Shown: positions 1,608-64,000 of the stretch, in pieces
How positions within the stretch are numbered: position 1 is the first letter of the stretch
Layout of the letters: each line of letters begins with the position of its first letter
Source: a virus
Virus record (IMG/VR): IMGVR_UViG_3300050821_002540
Coordinates: 9,694-73,693 of that record
Length of the DNA: 64,000 nucleotides
Strand: one strand, 5' to 3'
Notes under the pieces: generated by a model
The model's database searches: none
Told to the model about the DNA's origin: nothing
Seen by the model: only the letters and a program-made list of their open reading frames with translations
Position numbers and translations under genes: made by a program

Positions 1608-1850
1608 ATGAGCGACCACACCAGCGTCATAGTGTCGGTACTGCCCGACTGTGACTTCACTCACGAGAAGCCGGTCAAGGCAAAGTACGACGGCAAGACC
1701 AAGATGGGGCCGTGGGCGAACATGTGCCAGTCCCACTTCGACCAGAACGGCATCGGCCTGGGTCTCGGCCGGGGCCAGAAGCTGATCATCAAGGACAAGG
1801 ACAGCGACGATGGCGCCAGGGCTGAGGAACTGGACGGCACTAACCCGTAG
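1608..1850 (+). CDS. Conserved-looking phage hypothetical protein
   Basis: RBS AGGAGGCGA; motif CD...YDGKT..GPWA.MC..HF...G.GLG.GRGQ. Confidence 0.75.
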   Translation: MSDHTSVIVSVLPDCDFTHEKPVKAKYDGKTKMGPWANMCQSHFDQNGIGLGLGRGQKLIIKDKDSDDGARAEELDGTNP

Positions 1851-1920
1851 CTGGTAGCTGCCCGACAGGCTGGGACTCCCCGCCCAGCCTGTCGGGGAAC
1901 GTCCAGTACAAGGAGGAAAG

Positions 1921-2127
1921 ATGCCACCCACCGGAATCTCGATTGCCATGAAGTTCTTCGGCAAGCGCACCATGCCTGACGGCAAGGAGCAGCGACTGTC
2001 CGAGTTCAAGGAGGAATGGGACGGACTGCTGGTGGACCACGTCCCCGGCACGCCGGTCCGGGATGAGCACCGGGTGGTGCAGCACGCGATCATTGCGGGC
2101 ATCGAGGATGGCAGCTTCACCTACTGA
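1921..2127 (+). CDS. Hypothetical protein
   Basis: RBS AAGGAGG; GC3-rich codons. Confidence 0.7.
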   Translation: MPPTGISIAMKFFGKRTMPDGKEQRLSEFKEEWDGLLVDHVPGTPVRDEHRVVQHAIIAGIEDGSFTY

Positions 2128-2203
2128 CCTGGCACGCGTGGTGGCCAGCCTCCTGTGAGGCGAAGGGCGCAGGTAGTGACGCCTGTGCCTGTCACGTTAA
2201 AGC

Positions 2204-2275
2204 AGAGGGTCGTATGAGGCAAGTACGGGTGGGCTGATCCCCCGCCAGGTGTGGGTTCGAATCCCACCCCTCTCA
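2204..2275 (+). tRNA. Atypical or pseudo tRNA, GAT in anticodon position
   Basis: T-arm GTGGG-TTCGAAT-CCCAC; acceptor AGAGGG/CCCTCT; D-stem CGTA/TACG; anticodon stem GTGGG/CCCGC with loop CTGATCC (non-purine at 37). Confidence 0.45.
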
Positions 2276-2289
2276 CGAAAGGAGCAGTC

Positions 2290-2562
2290 ATGAGCAAGCC
2301 ACAGGTAGTAATTGTCCGCAAGGACAAGAAGATCAGGCACAAGGTGCTGCACGCAGCAGCGTTCGCCGTAACCGGCGGGGCAAGCGGCATCGTCACGGCG
2401 GCCGAGGCAGCCAGTCACGCGCAGTACAATGCCAGGACTCGGCAGCTCCAGGAGCAGTCCAGTCCCCGTCCGGCCCAGGTTAGCAAGGCAAAGGCAGTAG
2501 TTGGCCTTGTCTGCCTCAGCATCATTGTGCTGTGCATCATCATCGCAATCGCGGTGGGCTGA
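2290..2562 (+). CDS. Membrane protein
   Basis: RBS AAAGGAG before ATG 2290; hydrophobic C-terminal helix. Confidence 0.6.
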   Translation: MSKPQVVIVRKDKKIRHKVLHAAAFAVTGGASGIVTAAEAASHAQYNARTRQLQEQSSPRPAQVSKAKAVVGLVCLSIIVLCIIIAIAVG

Positions 2563-3077
2563 TGCCTGCGATTCCACTAGTTATCTACCAGCTGGTGGAA
2601 GCTAGAATCGCCTTGAAGTTCGAGATCAAGCACGGTCACGGGCCGACAAGAGCAGTCAACTCCAAGAGCATAATCCCATGGCTGTACAAGTACTACATTA
2701 CCGAGGTGTGTCAGGCACGGTACAGCCAGGAGCACAAGATCAAGGCGTACAATGACCTTAACAAGTATATGACAGATCACGGGATGGATGATAGGCCACT
2801 ATGACCGAGGGCAGGGGAACAGGCTACCAGGAACTGTACTACGAGATCATAGCACTAGTCAATGATGGCGTGCTTGGCAATGAAAGCCCGCCAACTCCAA
2901 ATTACTGGCACTGGCCAATTCGTGAGCCGGAAAGGCTCCCGGAGAAGTTTCAGAAGTGGATACCACTAGGGGAGGTGCGATGGTAGTGTCACTAGCAATA
3001 ATTGGTACTTTTCTCGTCGGCGTTGCTTTTGGCGCATTCATTGCAGTAATAGCAATCATGAATGCGGACAAGCGGCC

Positions 3078-3470
3078 ATGAGCTGGGATGTCACTCTGTA
3101 CCAGGTACACAAGATCACTAACTGTCCACACTGTGGTCTTCCACTTCCGGTTCCGCGCGAGGAAGAGGAAGAGGTAAACTGGTGGAACTACACACATAAC
3201 ACCAGCCCAATGATCTATGAAGCCCTGAAGCAGGAAGGCTTCGAGCTTCCTGAGGGCAAGAACTGGTGGCAACATCTTGACGGTATGAACGGTCATGCTG
3301 GCGTGGCATACCTCAGTATTATCATCGGGCAGCTTGAGCTTAACCCACACCATTACAGACTCATGAACCCAGATAATGGCTGGGGTGACTATGACTCACT
3401 ACTCGCCACTCTCTGTTCAATGCGTGACGAGCCAGTCAATAAAGATTCCAGATGGCATGTGAGTGGGTGA
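3078..3470 (+). CDS. Phage hypothetical protein
   Basis: CPHCG, NYTHN and NPDNGWGDY motifs typical of a phage hypothetical family. Confidence 0.7.
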   Translation: MSWDVTLYQVHKITNCPHCGLPLPVPREEEEEVNWWNYTHNTSPMIYEALKQEGFELPEGKNWWQHLDGMNGHAGVAYLSIIIGQLELNPHHYRLMNPDNGWGDYDSLLATLCSMRDEPVNKDSRWHVSG

Positions 3471-3645
3471 ATAATGTACTGGCAGGTAAGGGCGAGCTTT
3501 GCCAATAGTGGCGGCATCATGACGTTTGGCCTGGAGGCAGACAATCGCATCGGGGCCGAGCTGCTAGCATTCGACAGGATGCCACCTGGCGTCTGTGTGC
3601 TTGACGTGACGGCGATAGATGCGACGAAACTCAGAGTAGCAAAAG

Positions 3646-6329: not shown

Positions 6330-7223
6330 AGGGGTAGCGCCCCGGCCGGGGGAATGATAGACTCCTGAAAAGTGAGGAACCCTGGCCGGGGCCAGTGCTA
6401 GGAGGCGAAATGAAGTGTGGTAGCTGCAGGGACAGCCACAAGACTGTCGATGAGGTAAGAGACTGCTACAAGCAGAAGAACTTCGTGCCGCTCACGACTG
6501 TGCACGATGGCAAGAACGGCCAGTATGAGCTGCTCCAGAAGCTCCTGGCTGAGCGCGACATGGCTCCGCTCCCTCCGTACGATCACGTCGCGAACACAAT
6601 AAGCAAGAGCGACGCGGGTGAGGCAATCGCTCTCCTCATCGACAACGTGCCCAAGTCCGACGGCAAGTGCGATGACGACTGGGAGGGTGAGTTATGTCTG
6701 AGGGCACTCTCAGGGAAAGGTACCTGGCCAGCCAGACAAAATACAACCGCAGCTACAAAGGGGCGGCTCGGTACAAGCGGTATGAGGCAAAGCATCCCGA
6801 GCGTGCTCAGGCATGGAGCGAGCTCATGCAGATCAAGGCGAGGCGGCGGTTATGCTTTATGTCGCATTTGAATGCGTCCTGATCATTATGACGGCGAATG
6901 AGCTTTGTGCGCCCTCATACATGGCCGAGTACACTGCAGCCAAGTTCGGTGTTGCAATGATACTCATCATGATCAGGGAGATGCAATGACAGTCGATGAA
7001 GCCATTGAGGAAATTACTCGTGCATCAGTAATCTGTACCGATGTAGACCTATGGCGTAGTGAGCTTGAAACTATCCTCAAGGCCGTCCGCTCGCGCGCAG
7101 TTCTCGATGCACAGGCAAGCATGGTTGCCGCATTTACCTGTCCGGAACATCACGGCAGGCACGAAATTCCTACCGATCAGGTAGGGAATATCCAAGGACC
7201 CGTTTCACCTTGAAGGGAATGCC

Positions 7224-8069
7224 ATGGAAACCACTCAGACAGTCCTGCTCAGCCATCTCCACCCGAACCCAGCCAACCCCCGCGTGGAAGCTGGGGATGT
7301 AACTGATCTTGCCCTTTCAATCAGGGAACAGGGCATAGTACATGACATCCTTGTCCGTCCCTCTCCTGAATTTGGAGTGGGCCACTTCGTAATTGAGGAT
7401 GGATTCCGGCGCTGGGTGGCGGCCGAGGGTAACGCGAGGATGGGGCTAGGTCCTGAGACAGTTCAGGTACGCATCCGGTCGCTGAAGCCAGGCGAGAATT
7501 ATGCCGTGCGCGAGGTTGTTACATCACTCGTAACAACAATCCATCGTACTGACCTCAGGGCAATGGAGAAGGCACACGCATTCGAGGCCCTGATGAGGGA
7601 GACCGGCAAGAACCAGTCGGAAGTTGCCAGGATGATTGGCGTGAATTCCAGTACGGTAGGTCGGTACCTTTCACTTCTGGAGCTAGCGCCACAGGCACAG
7701 AAACGAGTGTCCGATGGAACACTCAGCGTAGAGGACGCAATAGATGCGGTTATTAAGCATCGAGCAAAGGCAAGGAAGGACAAGGGACAGGCTGCAGTTG
7801 ACCCTGGCTGGGAGCCACTCTACCTCGCGAAGACGCACCCTCTTGCAAAGAAGGCTCGAACAATGTGCGATGCCAGGGAGCATAATAATCGCCGTCGCCT
7901 AGATGGCGTAGCCTGCGGGCAGTGCTTCGAGACTGTTATACGTCAGGACCAGAGCACAGTAGACAGGATGGAGTACAATGAGGCTTTCAAGAATGCCGGA
8001 CTCAGCGTCCCATTCACCGCTCCAATCTTCCTGACCGGCGAGGATGCCAGCAAGAATGGACAGCCATGA
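7224..8069 (+). CDS. parB: ParB/RepB/Spo0J-family protein
   Basis: PNPANPR, LALSIREQGIVHDILVRP, DGFRRW (GxRR), then HTH QSEVARMIGVNSSTVGRYL. Confidence 0.9.
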   Translation: METTQTVLLSHLHPNPANPRVEAGDVTDLALSIREQGIVHDILVRPSPEFGVGHFVIEDGFRRWVAAEGNARMGLGPETVQVRIRSLKPGENYAVREVVTSLVTTIHRTDLRAMEKAHAFEALMRETGKNQSEVARMIGVNSSTVGRYLSLLELAPQAQKRVSDGTLSVEDAIDAVIKHRAKARKDKGQAAVDPGWEPLYLAKTHPLAKKARTMCDAREHNNRRRLDGVACGQCFETVIRQDQSTVDRMEYNEAFKNAGLSVPFTAPIFLTGEDASKNGQP

Positions 8070-12049: not shown

Positions 12050-12629
12050 CCGATATGCGTAATGTCAGGAATGCTATCGCACGTGTGCGGTCAAACCTCA
12101 GGAACGTCGAGCATGAAGCCGTTCTTGGCAACAGTAATGGTGCGTTTGCCTCTGCCCAGGATGCCTGGCAGAATGCCTTTGACCTCATGCAGCTATTCGC
12201 CCTCACGGATGATGAGCTGGCAAAGGCAAAACCTGGAGCCAATGACCCGGAGACAAATTAATGTCAGATAGTGACGATAAGTTCCGCGAGTGGTTTGGTG
12301 CCAATGAGGGGAAACTCAGGCTTCCATGGAACACAGACTCACTCCGTGCTGCCTGGGAGGCCGGCAGGAAGTCGAGGGATAAGGAGATTGAATTTCTCCG
12401 AACGGTCACAGAACAGGGATGGGAATGACCTGGGAGACTGCTAATCCATGGGCCATTGTCGATATCGAGGCTCGGCCGCAGGTAGTTGTTACCAGGTATG
12501 AGAGCAAGGCAATGGCAACATGGTACCTCGGCTACCTACTTGCGCACGGGGCTGCGTCTACGCAGGCGAAACTCAGGCGCGGCGGGTACGGCATCGAGGA
12601 AAATTCTCGGAAGATGATGGCTGAAAAGG

Positions 12630-12658
12630 TAGCGTCAGCTCGCCGGATGGACTATACT
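12630..12658 (+). promoter_or_regulatory. Phage promoter TAGCGT-N17-TATACT, internal to ORF 12419
   Basis: Family member; RBS GGAAAGG and ATG 12716 downstream. Confidence 0.6.
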
Positions 12659-12715
12659 AAGGGTAACGCTAAGCCACGAACCACCAACGTAGAAAACAAG
12701 GGAAAGGTCACAACC

Positions 12716-13168
12716 ATGCCACCTCGCGGACGTAAGGGTGCTGCTGTTCCGGTCGAGCCAGAGGAAGTGCTTGAGGAAGAGAATGGTGCCGGCTTGTTCG
12801 ATCATCACCTGACCAAGGACCTCAGCCCTACGATGTCAACCTACGCGGACTGGTTCCACGCCAACGTAGCGGACATCGACCAGCTAGGCAAGGATGACCC
12901 GGCTCGACTGCTTGCCCTAGGCAGCACGCTGTACCCGCACTTCCAGAAGTCCCCGGAGAACCAGGCTGCCCGTGCAGAGCGAAAGGCTGCGCGTGCCGTC
13001 GCTGTCGAGCCTGAGCCCGAGCCTGAGCCTGAGCCTGTTGCTCAGCCTGCGCGCCGGGGCCGTCCCTCCACCAAGGCTGCGGCTGCGGCACCGGCTGCTG
13101 CTCCTGCAGCCAAGGCCCCCGCTCGTCGGCGCGGTGCCGCCCCGGCTGCGGCCGAGGCACCCTACTAG
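12716..13168 (+). CDS. Hypothetical protein with Ala/Pro/Arg-rich tail, possibly DNA-binding
   Basis: RBS and promoter; (EP)n repeat and RRGRP/AKAPARRR tail. Confidence 0.6.
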   Translation: MPPRGRKGAAVPVEPEEVLEEENGAGLFDHHLTKDLSPTMSTYADWFHANVADIDQLGKDDPARLLALGSTLYPHFQKSPENQAARAERKAARAVAVEPEPEPEPEPVAQPARRGRPSTKAAAAAPAAAPAAKAPARRRGAAPAAAEAPY

Positions 13169-13475: not shown

Positions 13476-13478
13476 CCA

Positions 13479-13548
13479 GGGGCGTTGGTGTATGGGTAGC
13501 ACGCTTAGGTTTGATCTAAGAGCACCAGGTTCGAGTCCTGCAGCCCCA
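13479..13548 (+). tRNA. tRNA-Gln(TTG), imperfect acceptor stem
   Basis: D-stem GTGT/GCAC; anticodon stem CTTAG/CTAAG with loop GTTTGAT; T-loop GGTTCGAGTCC; GGGGC/GCCCC acceptor. Confidence 0.7.
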
Positions 13549-13569
13549 CGGCCAATAACTGGAGGAACA

Positions 13570-30063: not shown

Positions 30064-32033
30064 TCCGAGTTCCTTATCGTCACCGGGCTGATGTTCCTAT
30101 TGCTGACCGATACAGACGCAGATGAATTGCTCACTTCGACTGATCCTGCTAGTGACTGAGTTACCGTCACCTGTCCAGGGAACTGCGATGCCCCGAGTGT
30201 AAAGACAAATACGTCAGCCCCAGCTCCGCTATCCAGGAACGCCACCGGCATGCTGTATGTCAGCAGTTCAGTGCCTGAGCCACTATCAGACAGAACTACT
30301 GGGATGTTGAATAGCAGGGACTCGGTACTGACACCAGAGTCAGTCAGGGCAACCAGTGAGGACAGGCCAAGTACGTCTGTCCCAGCACCAGAGTCAGCTA
30401 GCAGTACAGAGCTAGTGATCTTCAGGCTATCGGTGCCTGTGCCAGAGTCAGCTAGGACAATTGGTGTTACCGACAGTACTGAGAGTGTGTCAGTACCAGA
30501 GCCAGAGTCAGTGAGCGCAACTGGCTGGGCAGATACAATTGTAAGTACGTCAGTGCCAGTGCCGGAGTCCGCTAGCCCTGGGATCATGCCGAGCGCGTCG
30601 GTACCCGTTCCGGCGTCCGCGAACGGTACCCCCGCCAGGACGCCTAGAACGTCCGTAGCCGCGCCGGAATCCCCTAGGGAGGGGAGGATACCTAGCGCGT
30701 CCGTTCCCGTCCCTACGTCGCTTATAGAGACGCCTACGGCTACTGCGAAAACGTCCGTCCCCGCCCCGGTATCGGACATGGTGACCGGGGTAACACTGAG
30801 CACGGCCAGGCTGTCAGTACCAGTACCTGAGTCAGTGAGGCCAGGCATAACACCGAGCGTATCGGTACCAGCACCAGTATCCGTCAGGGCCGTCGGCTGG
30901 ACAACAGCCAGCACATCTGTGCCAGCCCCAGAATCAGCTAGTGACACTACAGAGGTGACCGCAAATGTCTCTGTGCCAGAGCCAGAGTCGGTGAGCGGCG
31001 TCGGCTGAACAATCGCGAGGGCTTCTGTGCCTGACCCGGAGTCAGTAAGTGCTACTGGTGTGACTGACAGCACAGCCAGGGAGTCGGTGCCTGTACCCGA
31101 GTCTGTTAGCCCTGGCATGACGCCCAGGGCATCTGTCCCAGAACCAGAGTCCGTAAGCGCTGTCGGCTGGGTTATAGCCAGGACTTCTGTCCCGGTACCG
31201 GAGTCAGCTAGCGGTACTGTTGAGGTTACTGCCAGTGTCTCGGTACCGGATCCAGAGTCGGAAAGCTGTATCGCCGAGGAAGCAGCCGTTACCTGAACCG
31301 GAAGGAACTGCTGGTGATGGAACTTTTCAGTCCATGTCCTACCAGGCATTACCTGCTGTGGCAACTGGATTGTTACAGGACCACTAGATAGCTTGAACGC
31401 TACAAGTAGCAGGCCCCATGTAGCGGCGCCAGAGATGGCCCATGACAGGGACTCAGTCCCACCCGTACTATTGCCATAGGCAGTAGCTAGCTGGGCAGCA
31501 CTATTTGAACCTGAGTTCTTTAGTGGTGTGTATCCAGTCTCTGTATATGTAGTGGAGTAACCGGCATCACCAACAGAGGCAAGCAGGAACTCATTTGCTG
31601 CCGTAGAGCTGTATGCTGTACCGCCAGTTATGGTAGCCGGGGAGGCAGTACCAGTATTGTGTCCGGGAGACCCATCAAGCATTGACGTTGTATTACCAGC
31701 AAGCAGTCCTGACACTTCAAGCAGTACCGGGACCGACCCAAAGTTTGTCCCATTAGTGCAAGTTATTAGTGGTCCAGTTCCGACATCACCTGATGGGGTA
31801 TCCATTGCCCAGATCGAGATACCGCCCTGAGCCGACTGGTAGGCAAGCAGCCCTACCTGCGTAAAGCTATTGAGCGCTGCATCCTTAACTGACGTTGGGG
31901 CGGTAGAGCTGCTTGAGTCCAGGGACACTATGGCAATAAGCTTGGACCCGGATGTAAGCGTGCCATATGTAGCCGTACAGTTTCCCGATCCCTGTACTGT
32001 ACCCAGGACAGACTGGAGGACCGTGTAGGCCAT
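30060..32033 (-). CDS. Ser/Thr/Gly-rich repeat fibre-like structural protein
   Basis: About 20 repeats of L[TA]DSG[ST]GT[DE].L. Confidence 0.7.
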   Translation of the reverse strand: MAYTVLQSVLGTVQGSGNCTATYGTLTSGSKLIAIVSLDSSSSTAPTSVKDAALNSFTQVGLLAYQSAQGGISIWAMDTPSGDVGTGPLITCTNGTNFGSVPVLLEVSGLLAGNTTSMLDGSPGHNTGTASPATITGGTAYSSTAANEFLLASVGDAGYSTTYTETGYTPLKNSGSNSAAQLATAYGNSTGGTESLSWAISGAATWGLLLVAFKLSSGPVTIQLPQQVMPGRTWTEKFHHQQFLPVQVTAASSAIQLSDSGSGTETLAVTSTVPLADSGTGTEVLAITQPTALTDSGSGTDALGVMPGLTDSGTGTDSLAVLSVTPVALTDSGSGTEALAIVQPTPLTDSGSGTETFAVTSVVSLADSGAGTDVLAVVQPTALTDTGAGTDTLGVMPGLTDSGTGTDSLAVLSVTPVTMSDTGAGTDVFAVAVGVSISDVGTGTDALGILPSLGDSGAATDVLGVLAGVPFADAGTGTDALGMIPGLADSGTGTDVLTIVSAQPVALTDSGSGTDTLSVLSVTPIVLADSGTGTDSLKITSSVLLADSGAGTDVLGLSSLVALTDSGVSTESLLFNIPVVLSDSGSGTELLTYSMPVAFLDSGAGADVFVFTLGASQFPGQVTVTQSLAGSVEVSNSSASVSVSNRNISPVTIRNSE

Positions 32034-62729: not shown

Positions 62730-63185
62730 TAGCTGTTCCTTTCCCGGTCCTGGAACAGGATCCAGAGCTTCCCGTCCTCACTGACATGGATGCCAGTGAC
62801 CAGGCCGCCCGCCGCCGTCGGGGCCAGATTGGTAACCTCAGGAGTGCCCTCTGGGTTGTAGAACGCTGCTCCCCACATGGCCTCCATGAGCTCCTTGTTG
62901 TTCACCGGAAGAACCTCCAGAGAAGGAAGAGAAATACTACTGCGCCTATGAAGGTGGTGACGAGGACGAATGCCTTGCCCCATTTATCCAGCTTGTCCAT
63001 GTTCCTGTCCTGCTGGCTTCGTGACGATGACATTGAAGCCTCCATCCTCTCCATTGCACGGTTCCTGATGTACCCTGTGACCCTTGCCTGCCCTGCGGGC
63101 CGCTGATGCTACCCTCTTAACTGTCGCGTCTGCCTCTGCCCTGGTCCTGACCCAGGTGCGGATTACCTCAGTGCGGTTGTTGTCC

Positions 63186-63359
63186 TTACTGGCGATCCGG
63201 GTCAAGGAGCACCTCCTTCTCATACTCGGCTGCCTTGTCCTGGGCATCCTGAAGATCGTCTGGGTCAAGGCGGACAAGATCTACCTGTCCCCAGTAACGG
63301 TCATAGCAGGACAGGTAGCCAGCAAGGAAGTCCTTACCAGCGTTCGATGTGGGCTCCAT
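63186..63359 (-). CDS. 57-aa hypothetical protein, first gene of the - arm
   Basis: RBS AAGGAGG; ATG 63359 to TAA 63186; not in the ORF track. Confidence 0.6.
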   Translation of the reverse strand: MEPTSNAGKDFLAGYLSCYDRYWGQVDLVRLDPDDLQDAQDKAAEYEKEVLLDPDRQ

Positions 63360-63413: not shown

Positions 63414-63768
63414 GTCGTCATGACGGATGTGAGATTCATAACGACGCGGAGCGTCGGATTGCAAGACACTTTCATAACGTGTGGCAGGCGGAAAGAAGAG
63501 TGGGGAGGGAGGGGCCGAAAATCGCGGGACTTTCGGGGGCCTCCTAGGCGGGCCGGAGAGGCCCCGTAGGCGGCCCGAACGGGCCGACCCTACCTCGGGT
63601 ACCGAGCCGGGGGCCTACGCGCCCCGTAGGGGCCTTCTCGCCCCGTCTAGAGGGTACTCCGCCCCGTCCGCCGCGACCGGGCCGAAGCCGGGTCGCCTAC
63701 GCCTAGTCGCTACGCTCCGTAGCCGAGCGGTAATTTAAAGTTACTGTGTAGACGACCGTAGACGAGTA

Positions 63769-63797
63769 TAGGTTCTAGGCCCTTAGGCGGTTAGGCT
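63769..63797 (+). promoter_or_regulatory. Promoter TAGGTT-N17-TAGGCT
   Basis: Family member; followed by hairpin and RBS AAGGAGGCGA. Confidence 0.7.
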
Positions 63798-63855
63798 AGG
63801 GACTAGGCCCGCCCCCGATCGGAACGGGGGCGGCTACCCGAAGGAGGCGAGTCCG

Positions 63856-64000
63856 ATCGAGACTCGTAACGGAACCCCTATCGCGGACGTTAACGCCGCG
63901 ACCGCCCCTACCCCCGAGCGGAGCGTTAACGACGCTCCGGCCGCGTCGAAGCCGACCGCGTCGAAGCCGACCGCGTCGAAGCCGACCGCGACGAAGCCGA
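63856..64000 (+). CDS. Putative ATC-initiated ORF, truncated by the window end (IETRNGTPIADVNAATAPTPERSVNDAPAASKPTASKPT...)
   Basis: Phage consensus RBS 8 nt upstream; open frame with GC3 bias; in-frame TAG at 63784 and no ATG/GTG/TTG after it. Confidence 0.45.
   Translation, partial: METRNGTPIADVNAATAPTPERSVNDAPAASKPTASKPTASKPTATKP
63941..64000 (+). repeat. 15-bp tandem repeat CCGCGTCGAAGCCGA x4 (ASKPT repeats)
   Basis: Three exact copies plus one with a T>A change. Confidence 0.9.

Follow-up and report, generated by a model that had tools for sequence, protein, structure and literature searches.

The stretch of viral DNA analyzed here, the window, is 64,000 nucleotides (nt) long and corresponds to positions 9694-73693 of the 73,693-bp IMG/VR record IMGVR_UViG_3300050821_002540 (G000); window coordinates equal G000 coordinates minus 9693. 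At the 3′ end of the window begins ORF139, an open reading frame (ORF) of 139 codons. The gene lies in an 847-nt island from which the dinucleotides TG and CA have almost disappeared, and on sequence comparison it has ATC at the start position, where its orthologs have ATG. ORF139 is a real gene under strict TG/CA exclusion at the DNA level. It is likely that the island carries a complete and functional transcription unit, the translation of which would start at AUC. The first-pass annotation of the window had described an apparent gene written without TG and had proposed an immediate-early protein, possibly one that lets the rest of a modified genome be read. The observation was confirmed and the interpretation is supported in part.

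The TG/CA-poor island and the ORF139 cassette

Only five TG or CA steps are present in the 847-nt island (window 63745 and 63747; G000 147, 252 and 331), whereas its own base composition predicts about 83 and the density in the remaining genome about 127. The observed/expected ratio (O/E) of CA/TG is 0.06 in the island versus 1.22 in the rest of the genome. The edges of the island are sharp (window 63501 and G000 446), and it forms a block of at least 0.5 kb with an O/E below about 0.3 on both strands. Between 63749 and 64000 no TG or CA occurs at all, and hence no ATG, GTG, TTG or CTG in any frame; this bears out the earlier statement that ATG, GTG and TTG are missing after the in-frame stop at 63784. 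The visible peptide had been described as lacking Met, Trp, Cys, His and Gln. This holds for its 48 residues, whereas the full protein, which is free of Trp, Cys, His and internal Met, contains one Gln (CAG, G000 331).

Chance and codon bias are excluded as the source of the depletion. When ORF139 was redrawn as the same protein with the codon usage of the phage, 46.6 ± 5.0 TG/CA steps were expected versus 3 observed. At the codon boundaries 2 steps were observed, versus 28.6 ± 4.3 expected with TG/CA-free codons only and 16.9 ± 3.0 expected after shuffling the gene's own codons among synonymous sites. The 354 nt of non-coding DNA 5′ of ORF139 are also purged and contain 2 steps. Since codon boundaries and upstream non-coding DNA are affected too, the constraint acts on the dinucleotide in the DNA. 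We propose that selection on the DNA dinucleotide, and not on codons or amino acids alone, would have stripped nearly all TG and CA from the 847 nt. Under this purge the start codon would have changed from ATG to ATC, and the protein would have come to avoid Met, Trp, Cys and His and to keep a single Gln. Some agent that reads the TG/CA step would have to be kept off the cassette.

The dinucleotides TA (O/E 2.58) and CG (O/E 1.37) are both enriched in the island, which is the outcome expected when TG and CA are removed by single transitions. The GC content is 0.69 in the island versus 0.56 elsewhere in the genome. The deviating GC content, together with high TA and low CA/TG values that resemble an index of repeat-induced point mutation (RIP), would also fit a recent import from a donor of like composition or a context mutator of the RIP type converting CA to TA. 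Such an origin is very improbable, as the cassette carries the phage's own promoter family and ribosome-binding site (RBS), and its ortholog is syntenic in relatives. Leu and Val are mostly encoded by CTC and GTC and not by CTA and GTA, and the start is ATC and not ATA. A mutator would furthermore make stop codons (CAG to TAG, TGG to TAG), none of which is present.

The signals that the first-pass annotation had placed around the ATC frame, a promoter, an RBS and an open frame biased toward G and C at third codon positions (GC3), are all present (Table 1). The element GTTAGGCTAG of the predicted promoter is the GGTAGGCTAG motif with 1 mismatch. This motif is found at eight other sites of the genome, which makes the promoter a member of a nine-member family. 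Every other promoter of the family is followed by a hairpin composed of G and C only, and most of them then by an RBS of the GGAGGCGA type and ATG. The leader of ORF139 folds with z = -2.4 into a hairpin similar to those at the other family promoters and in L005, a viral contig syntenic with the phage. The fold of the 261-nt upstream region is modestly better than that of shuffled sequences (z = -2.0). TG/CA-free spans of 39-50 nt at the other family promoters were considered as independent support and dismissed, as they consist largely of the conserved motif and the G/C-only hairpins. An 85-amino-acid (aa) ORF with a GTG start at 63481-63738 was likewise rejected as a gene; it has no Shine-Dalgarno (SD) sequence, and its Gly/Arg/Pro-rich composition is that of an off-frame reading.

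The final 97 nt of the window are identical to G000 1-97; the record was assembled circularly, and the sequence resumes at G000 98. Extension past position 64000 shows that the frame stays open for 275 nt beyond the junction, up to a TAG at G000 370-372, and that the exclusion persists to G000 445. The frame thus does not close early, and no gene with RBS and ATG begins just downstream. GC3 is 0.81 in the frame of ORF139 versus 0.68 and 0.60 in the other two. Downstream of the TAG lies a perfect 38-nt palindrome (19+19 nt, G000 381-418), which appears to be a tail-less terminator. With it, the predicted transcription unit of promoter, hairpin, SD, ORF139 and palindrome would be complete.

Another soil metagenome contains a 428-nt contig that matches window 63473-63900 letter for letter and has the ATC, which is therefore not an assembly error. 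The Logan contigs end at a 15-nt tandem repeat within ORF139; the repeat copy number is therefore uncertain, and the frame is kept regardless. In the source run, a 353-nt Logan contig that continues beyond this repeat (window 63928-64000) has a depth of 23.3 versus 9.6 for the 4.9-kb left-hand contig, which is either a repeat artefact or possibly the sign of a terminal repeat with 2x coverage. A lone metatranscriptome contig spans window 62981-63190, outside the cassette, and is neutral on expression.

Table 1. Positions of the features discussed in the text (window coordinates unless marked G000).
Feature	Position	Strand	Remarks
TG/CA-poor island, window part	63502..64000		Whole island: window 63502-63903 plus G000 1-445, 847 nt
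Promoter-like site	63769..63797	+	Predicted; TAGGTT, 17 nt, TAGGCT (-10 of type TANNNT)
Other promoters of the family	G000 +3967, +6409, +10341, +11253, +16015, +37856, +38579, -3910	as signed	TAGCTT-like -35, GGTAGGCTAG -10
5′-leader hairpin	63809..63833	+	9-bp G/C core CCGCCCCCG / CGGGGGCGG; inverted repeat I4, two 12-nt arms, 92% complementary
Shine-Dalgarno AAGGAGGCGA	63841..63850	+	GGAGGCGA stands before many ATG genes of the phage
ORF139, codons 1-48	63856..64000	+	Putative start ATC; GC3 bias and homologs
15-nt tandem repeats	63937..63996	+	Code for the (A/T)SKPT units of the disordered, basic linker; site of the 97-nt end overlap
tRNA with anticodon GAU (reads AUC)	2203..2276	+	ARAGORN; Rfam tRNA 33.5 bits (gathering score 29); candidate initiator
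249-aa protein with paralog of the ORF139 C-terminal domain	12419..13168	+	hhalign probability 95%, E 1.9e-8

Homologs of ORF139 and the graded purge in relatives

A HMMER search over 1.8 billion representatives returned four relatives of ORF139 (P0001-P0004), of which P0001 was found with E 2.8e-27 and shares 74% identity in the C-terminal domain. Metagenome scans for loci encoding P0001-P0004 found none. Further homologs are encoded by L005, by L011 (two copies) and by L014. The family has a common architecture consisting of a short N-terminal motif, a Pro/Ala/Lys/Thr linker and a C-terminal domain. L005 shares with the phage a portal protein of 75% and a TerL of 64% identity, and it carries the ortholog at the same place. 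The phage itself encodes a 249-aa protein with a paralog of the C-terminal domain. In the paralog domain 24 TG/CA steps occur in 177 nt, versus 2 in 204 nt in ORF139, and the paralog, which is coded with normal TG/CA, thus represents an internal control for the purge. ORF139 is regarded as a real gene because of its GC3 bias, the homolog family, the syntenic ortholog in L005 and the paralog domain in the same genome, as the first-pass annotation had maintained.

The conserved motif Y(V/L)xWL contains Trp in the homologs that are coded outside depleted DNA (L005, L011 and L014), Tyr in ORF139 and P0001, and Phe in P0002-P0004. The proteins P0001-P0004 have no Trp, Cys, His or internal Met. The replacement of Trp in the motif and the absence of these residues suggest that the genes of P0001-P0004 are purged of TG/CA too. 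Among the relatives with known loci, the purge is conserved yet graded. It is strong in L005, where 16 TG/CA steps are present in the 568 nt of positions 6346-6913 and the depletion fades across three successive genes. It is moderate in G003, in which a 5-kb zone has a TG/CA O/E of 0.68-0.85 and chiefly sense-strand CA has been lost. Slight dips are seen at the syntenic place in G004, G005 and G002, and the L011 copies show no depletion. In a divergent operon at the syntenic place in L014 (2000-6400; G003 23-28 kb), the O/E of sense-strand CA is 0.33-0.75 and that of TG is close to 1; such a difference between the strands would be compatible with a reader of the template strand or a reader at the RNA level.

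MazF toxins of the ACA type are known. An endoribonuclease of the host or the phage, such as a toxin that cleaves words with CA or UG, would spare an mRNA that is free of such words, and the wider loss of sense-strand CA than of TG in L005 and G003 is consistent with this explanation. We regard it as quite unlikely. The approximately 300 nt upstream of the predicted promoter are purged equally, and TG and CA are both banned on the same strand, for which one constraint at the DNA level is a simpler explanation than two at the RNA level.

The phage is lytic, siphovirus-like and from soil; its DNA was found in soil metagenomes, and its genome gave no match to an integrase or recombinase. The portal, capsid, terminase and tail genes form a minus-strand operon, and the replication block on the plus strand encodes a helicase, a PD-(D/E)XK nuclease, an AAA_24 protein and a split DnaE. 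The closest isolates are cluster-D mycobacteriophages, with a DnaE identity of 49%. The Rpf-type transglycosylase domain encoded by the phage and its TANNNT promoters indicate that the host is probably actinobacterial.

The cassette is flanked on one side by the beginning of the structural (terminase-side) operon and on the other by an iteron array beside the primase gene. Directly after the cassette terminator, dense direct repeats occupy G000 445-850 (CAGGCAGACAGC three times, CAGGCAATTTTCAG twice, TTCTCCTGGCTATCTAGTT twice and TCTAGTTCTCCTG four times). These arrays, which adjoin the primase-like gene and rank among the genome's richest stretches in TG/CA, probably represent the replication origin. 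The 7 kb adjoining the island (G000 1.2-8.4 kb, L004) have the highest TG/CA O/E of the genome, 1.4-1.6. At window 30587-30744, within a minus-strand gene that encodes a repeat-rich, tail-fibre-like protein of 657 aa, lies a second TG/CA-free patch of 157 nt that contains a single step. It shares the CGTAGG/CTAGG-rich style of the island, whereas TG/CA abounds in the adjacent repeat units of this gene, and the patch is distant from any likely genome end.

The AlphaFold model of the ORF139 protein, built from a 9-sequence alignment with a predicted local distance difference test score (pLDDT) of 75, consists of a disordered basic N-terminal half and a four-helix C-terminal domain with a small hairpin. 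The ESM Atlas gave weak leads to HTH_36 and RepA at 0.88-0.91. Our guess is that the protein might bind DNA near the origin, because of its basic linker, the weak Atlas leads, the closeness of its gene to the iterons and the primase gene, and the location of the paralog within the replication block.

The putative ATC start codon and the phage tRNA(GAU)

The ATC at 63856-63858 is located 8 nt past GGAGG (GGAGG-N8-ATC), and no NTG codon is present in frame. The geometry of SD and start is AGGCGA-N5-ATC in ORF139 versus AGGCGA-N5-ATG in the orthologs of L005 and L011a. As judged from this alignment of signals, the ATC that the first-pass annotation had taken for the start does stand in the place of the orthologs' ATG, and we attribute the change to the TG/CA purge of the cassette DNA. 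A search for another near-cognate codon at a usable distance from the SD found none; the following ATC of the frame is 33 nt away from it. We infer that translation begins at AUC 63856. Directly after the SD, a small hairpin (CGAGTC / GACTCG, window 63853-63871) carries the ATC in its 7-nt loop.

The phage encodes two tRNAs, tRNA(GAU) and a tRNA-Gln(UUG) at 13478-13549. Position 1 of tRNA(GAU) forms a C1.C72 mismatch in the ARAGORN cloverleaf (non-standard according to cmscan) and no Watson-Crick 1:72 pair. The anticodon arm, GUGGG-CUGAUCC-CCCGC, contains the three G:C pairs G29-G31:C39-C41. Bacterial initiator tRNAs are best known for these two features, the lack of a Watson-Crick pair at 1:72 and the three G:C pairs of the anticodon stem. 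With the bacterial initiator tRNA-fMet, tRNA(GAU) thus has in common a C1 outside a Watson-Crick 1:72 pair, the G29-G31:C39-C41 pairs and A73. It differs from tRNA-fMet in its anticodon, which is GAU and not CAU, in the mismatch, which is C.C and not C.A, and in C37 and C38 of the loop. The formylation and identity set of the E. coli initiator comprises A11:U24, G2:C71 and C3:G70. Since these pairs are absent and C37 is present, the sequence of tRNA(GAU) points to an initiator-like tRNA and not to an initiator. Engineered initiators with changed anticodons are known from the RajBhandary and Schulman laboratories.

The relatives G003 and G005 encode instead an ordinary tRNA-Met(CAU) with a G1:C72 pair, at a place syntenic with the tRNA-Gln of the phage. 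Gln is the only TG/CA-dependent amino acid kept in ORF139, and the other tRNA of the phage is tRNA-Gln(UUG). A pattern for GAU tRNAs with the three G:C pairs matched 25 contigs, but ARAGORN recognized a GAU tRNA in 0/25 of them and a TG/CA island was present in 0/25. Three of the contigs (L093, L102 and L103) were re-checked, and an ARAGORN tRNA was found in 0/3. The matches may be tRNA fragments at prophage ends. A stricter pattern for initiator-type GAU tRNAs gave no matches, and a search for publications describing an initiator-bodied tRNA(GAU) found none.

AUC can act as a start codon: in E. coli it initiates at 1-2% of AUG, with a product bearing N-terminal Met (10.1101/063800). An AUC start in the phage would either be used weakly by the host initiator tRNA or be served by the initiator-like tRNA(GAU) of the phage. 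In its furthest form, this proposal makes AUC a private start codon: the initiator-bodied tRNA(GAU) would start translation at AUC on the TG/CA-free cassette, a TG-directed agent, most likely the phage's own thymine hypermodification, would act elsewhere, and a DNA-binding product would be made first, beside the origin. We consider this extended version unlikely.

The following points weigh against a functional cassette with an AUC start. AUC is a poor start on the host initiator tRNA. ORF139 is the sole convincing gene of the genome with SD and ATC, so that a dedicated initiator would serve a single gene. Besides the unusual C37, tRNA(GAU) has U11:A24, A2:U71 and G3:C70, and these other determinants of an initiator are therefore missing. 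Searches of Pfam, PHROGs, the PDB by sequence and Rfam with ORF139 and the island matched nothing, and no fold could be assigned, as Foldseek gave E >= 0.4 and VIA-align Z <= 4.5 (histone-fold, Q21 and small-terminase rows). Finally, the 97-nt end overlap of the record, labelled a direct terminal repeat ('DTR'), is probably an assembly overlap within the tandem repeat of ORF139.

The exchange of ATG for ATC might also be a start loss in a dying or silent gene, the ORF of which would be intact because the loss is recent. The low efficiency of AUC in E. coli (10.1101/063800), the ATG retained in the orthologs and the two genome copies seen, which are identical and give no evolutionary depth, would fit such a loss. 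This explanation is nevertheless decidedly unlikely, as the change matches a systematic purge that left no TG at all in the final 253 nt of the window. The promoter, the hairpin, the SD, the 139 open codons and the terminator are all intact, the C-terminal domain is still 74% identical to that of P0001, and the cognate initiator-like tRNA(GAU) is encoded in the genome. A functional cassette with an AUC start thus remains the preferred explanation.

Candidate readers of the TG/CA step and comparison with known systems

A dinucleotide ban that costs ATG and five amino acids implies a reader of the TG/CA step in the infected cell. To our knowledge, no published agent accounts for such a ban. One candidate is a mark of the phage's own: thymine in TpG would be hypermodified throughout the genome by a T-dioxygenase and a glycosyltransferase, and the target-free cassette would stay unmodified, so that on the incoming DNA it could be read or bound by machinery of the host. 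Hypermodified thymine in a TG motif has been reported for the Pbunavirus phages F8 and 14-1 (PMC12191111). The ParB-dependent phage T-dioxygenase 5mYOX176 prefers NTG, and such genes often lie beside genes for glycosyltransferases and ParB (PMC13229309). In the phage studied here, a ParB (ParB_N and HTH_ParB, window 7224-8069) is adjacent to a 295-aa protein that matches TAGT with E 3.7e-4 and 20.9 bits, and a long ThyX is encoded as well. The TAGT-like gene is common to this phage and G003 only, the relative with the broad depleted zone, and the sense-strand CA lost in G003 is equivalent to TG of the template strand. Furthermore, the E. coli phage Mansfield (MK903282, L092), a PB1-like relative of the TG-marked Pbunavirus, carries a TG/CA-depleted block at 1751-3500, with an O/E of 0.10-0.43 per 250 nt.

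These observations make a self-imposed mark possible, and we hold it tentatively. The TAGT match is below the Pfam cut-off of 27.5, and the ParB retains its HTH domain, unlike the ParBs associated with dioxygenases. Pfam Tet_JBP gave no match in this phage or in four relatives; many phage T-dioxygenases escape this model (PMC13229309). TGT/DpdA and C5 and N6/N4 DNA methylases were not matched in the phage either. The TG-marked Pseudomonas phage F8 (L090+L091) has no TG/CA-free island, its minimum O/E being 0.67 per 500 nt and its longest gap 88 nt. The other early genes of our phage, directly beside the island, are full of TG/CA.

The reader could also belong to the host. The cassette would then be located at the leading injected end and lack the sequence that a host nuclease or another DNA-level defence attacks, and its product would protect or start up the remaining genome. 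Phage T5 offers a precedent, as its first-step-transfer (pre-early) DNA is free of EcoRI sites. The island lies about 3.3 kb from TerL, past the beginning of the packaging/structural operon, a usual location of genome ends, and the place is syntenic in five relatives. The Mansfield block is situated within a 3,673-bp terminal repeat predicted by PhageTerm, and in L005 the depletion declines along a gradient of three consecutive genes. A host reader of the first-entering DNA is somewhat doubtful, since no known nuclease or defence reads a bare dinucleotide and restriction-type palindromes are enriched and not avoided in the island (CGCG 8.5-fold, CTAG 4.7-fold and GCGCGC 42-fold). The second TG/CA-free patch, in the tail-fibre-like gene, is remote from any end.

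A search for publications describing TG/CA-free islands, that of Mansfield included, found none. The occurrence of like islands in unrelated phages, of which Mansfield was checked, indicates that the pressure looks general. The genome described here adds a clean natural SD-ATC start with syntenic orthologs starting at ATG, a paralog as a control within the same genome, and confirmation in an independent sample. With the co-resident tRNA(GAU), which has initiator hallmarks, virus-encoded non-AUG initiation can be tested directly. Should the TG/CA reader prove to be a thymine mark in TG context, such islands would be an indicator, recognizable from sequence only, of the modification and of the genes that escape it.

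Natural start codons other than NTG are known from infC, which carries AUU. In infC and at the AUC starts measured in E. coli, as in ORF139, an SD at working distance is followed by an AUH codon. The weak start of infC is a regulatory device, whereas the ATC of ORF139 looks like the by-product of a dinucleotide ban, accompanied by an initiator-like tRNA of the phage. With respect to the reader, the TG-context thymine hypermodification of F8 and 14-1 and of 5mYOX176/ParB is the only documented phage process that reads TG, and a ParB gene and a glycosyltransferase-like gene lie side by side in the phage studied here. In contrast to 5mYOX176/ParB, a dioxygenase was not recognized here, and F8 itself is without an island.

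The block in the terminal repeat of the Wifcevirus Mansfield resembles the island in its sharp bounds, in its small genes with their own RBS and in its location a few kb from the terminase genes. It is less strict and keeps ATG starts, and it belongs to a myovirus that infects a Gram-negative host and is unrelated to our phage. The Mansfield block is part of a terminal repeat, whereas the island of our phage is known from contigs. The first-step-transfer DNA of T5 is likewise a short, early-acting part of the genome that is free of a word common in the rest of it. The word of T5 is a restriction site of 6 bp, and experiments have shown which end enters first, whereas the island, known from sequence, bans a dinucleotide. 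The logic resembles the avoidance of restriction sites in early-entering phage DNA, but here the word is a dinucleotide and the price includes, besides five amino acids, the start codon.

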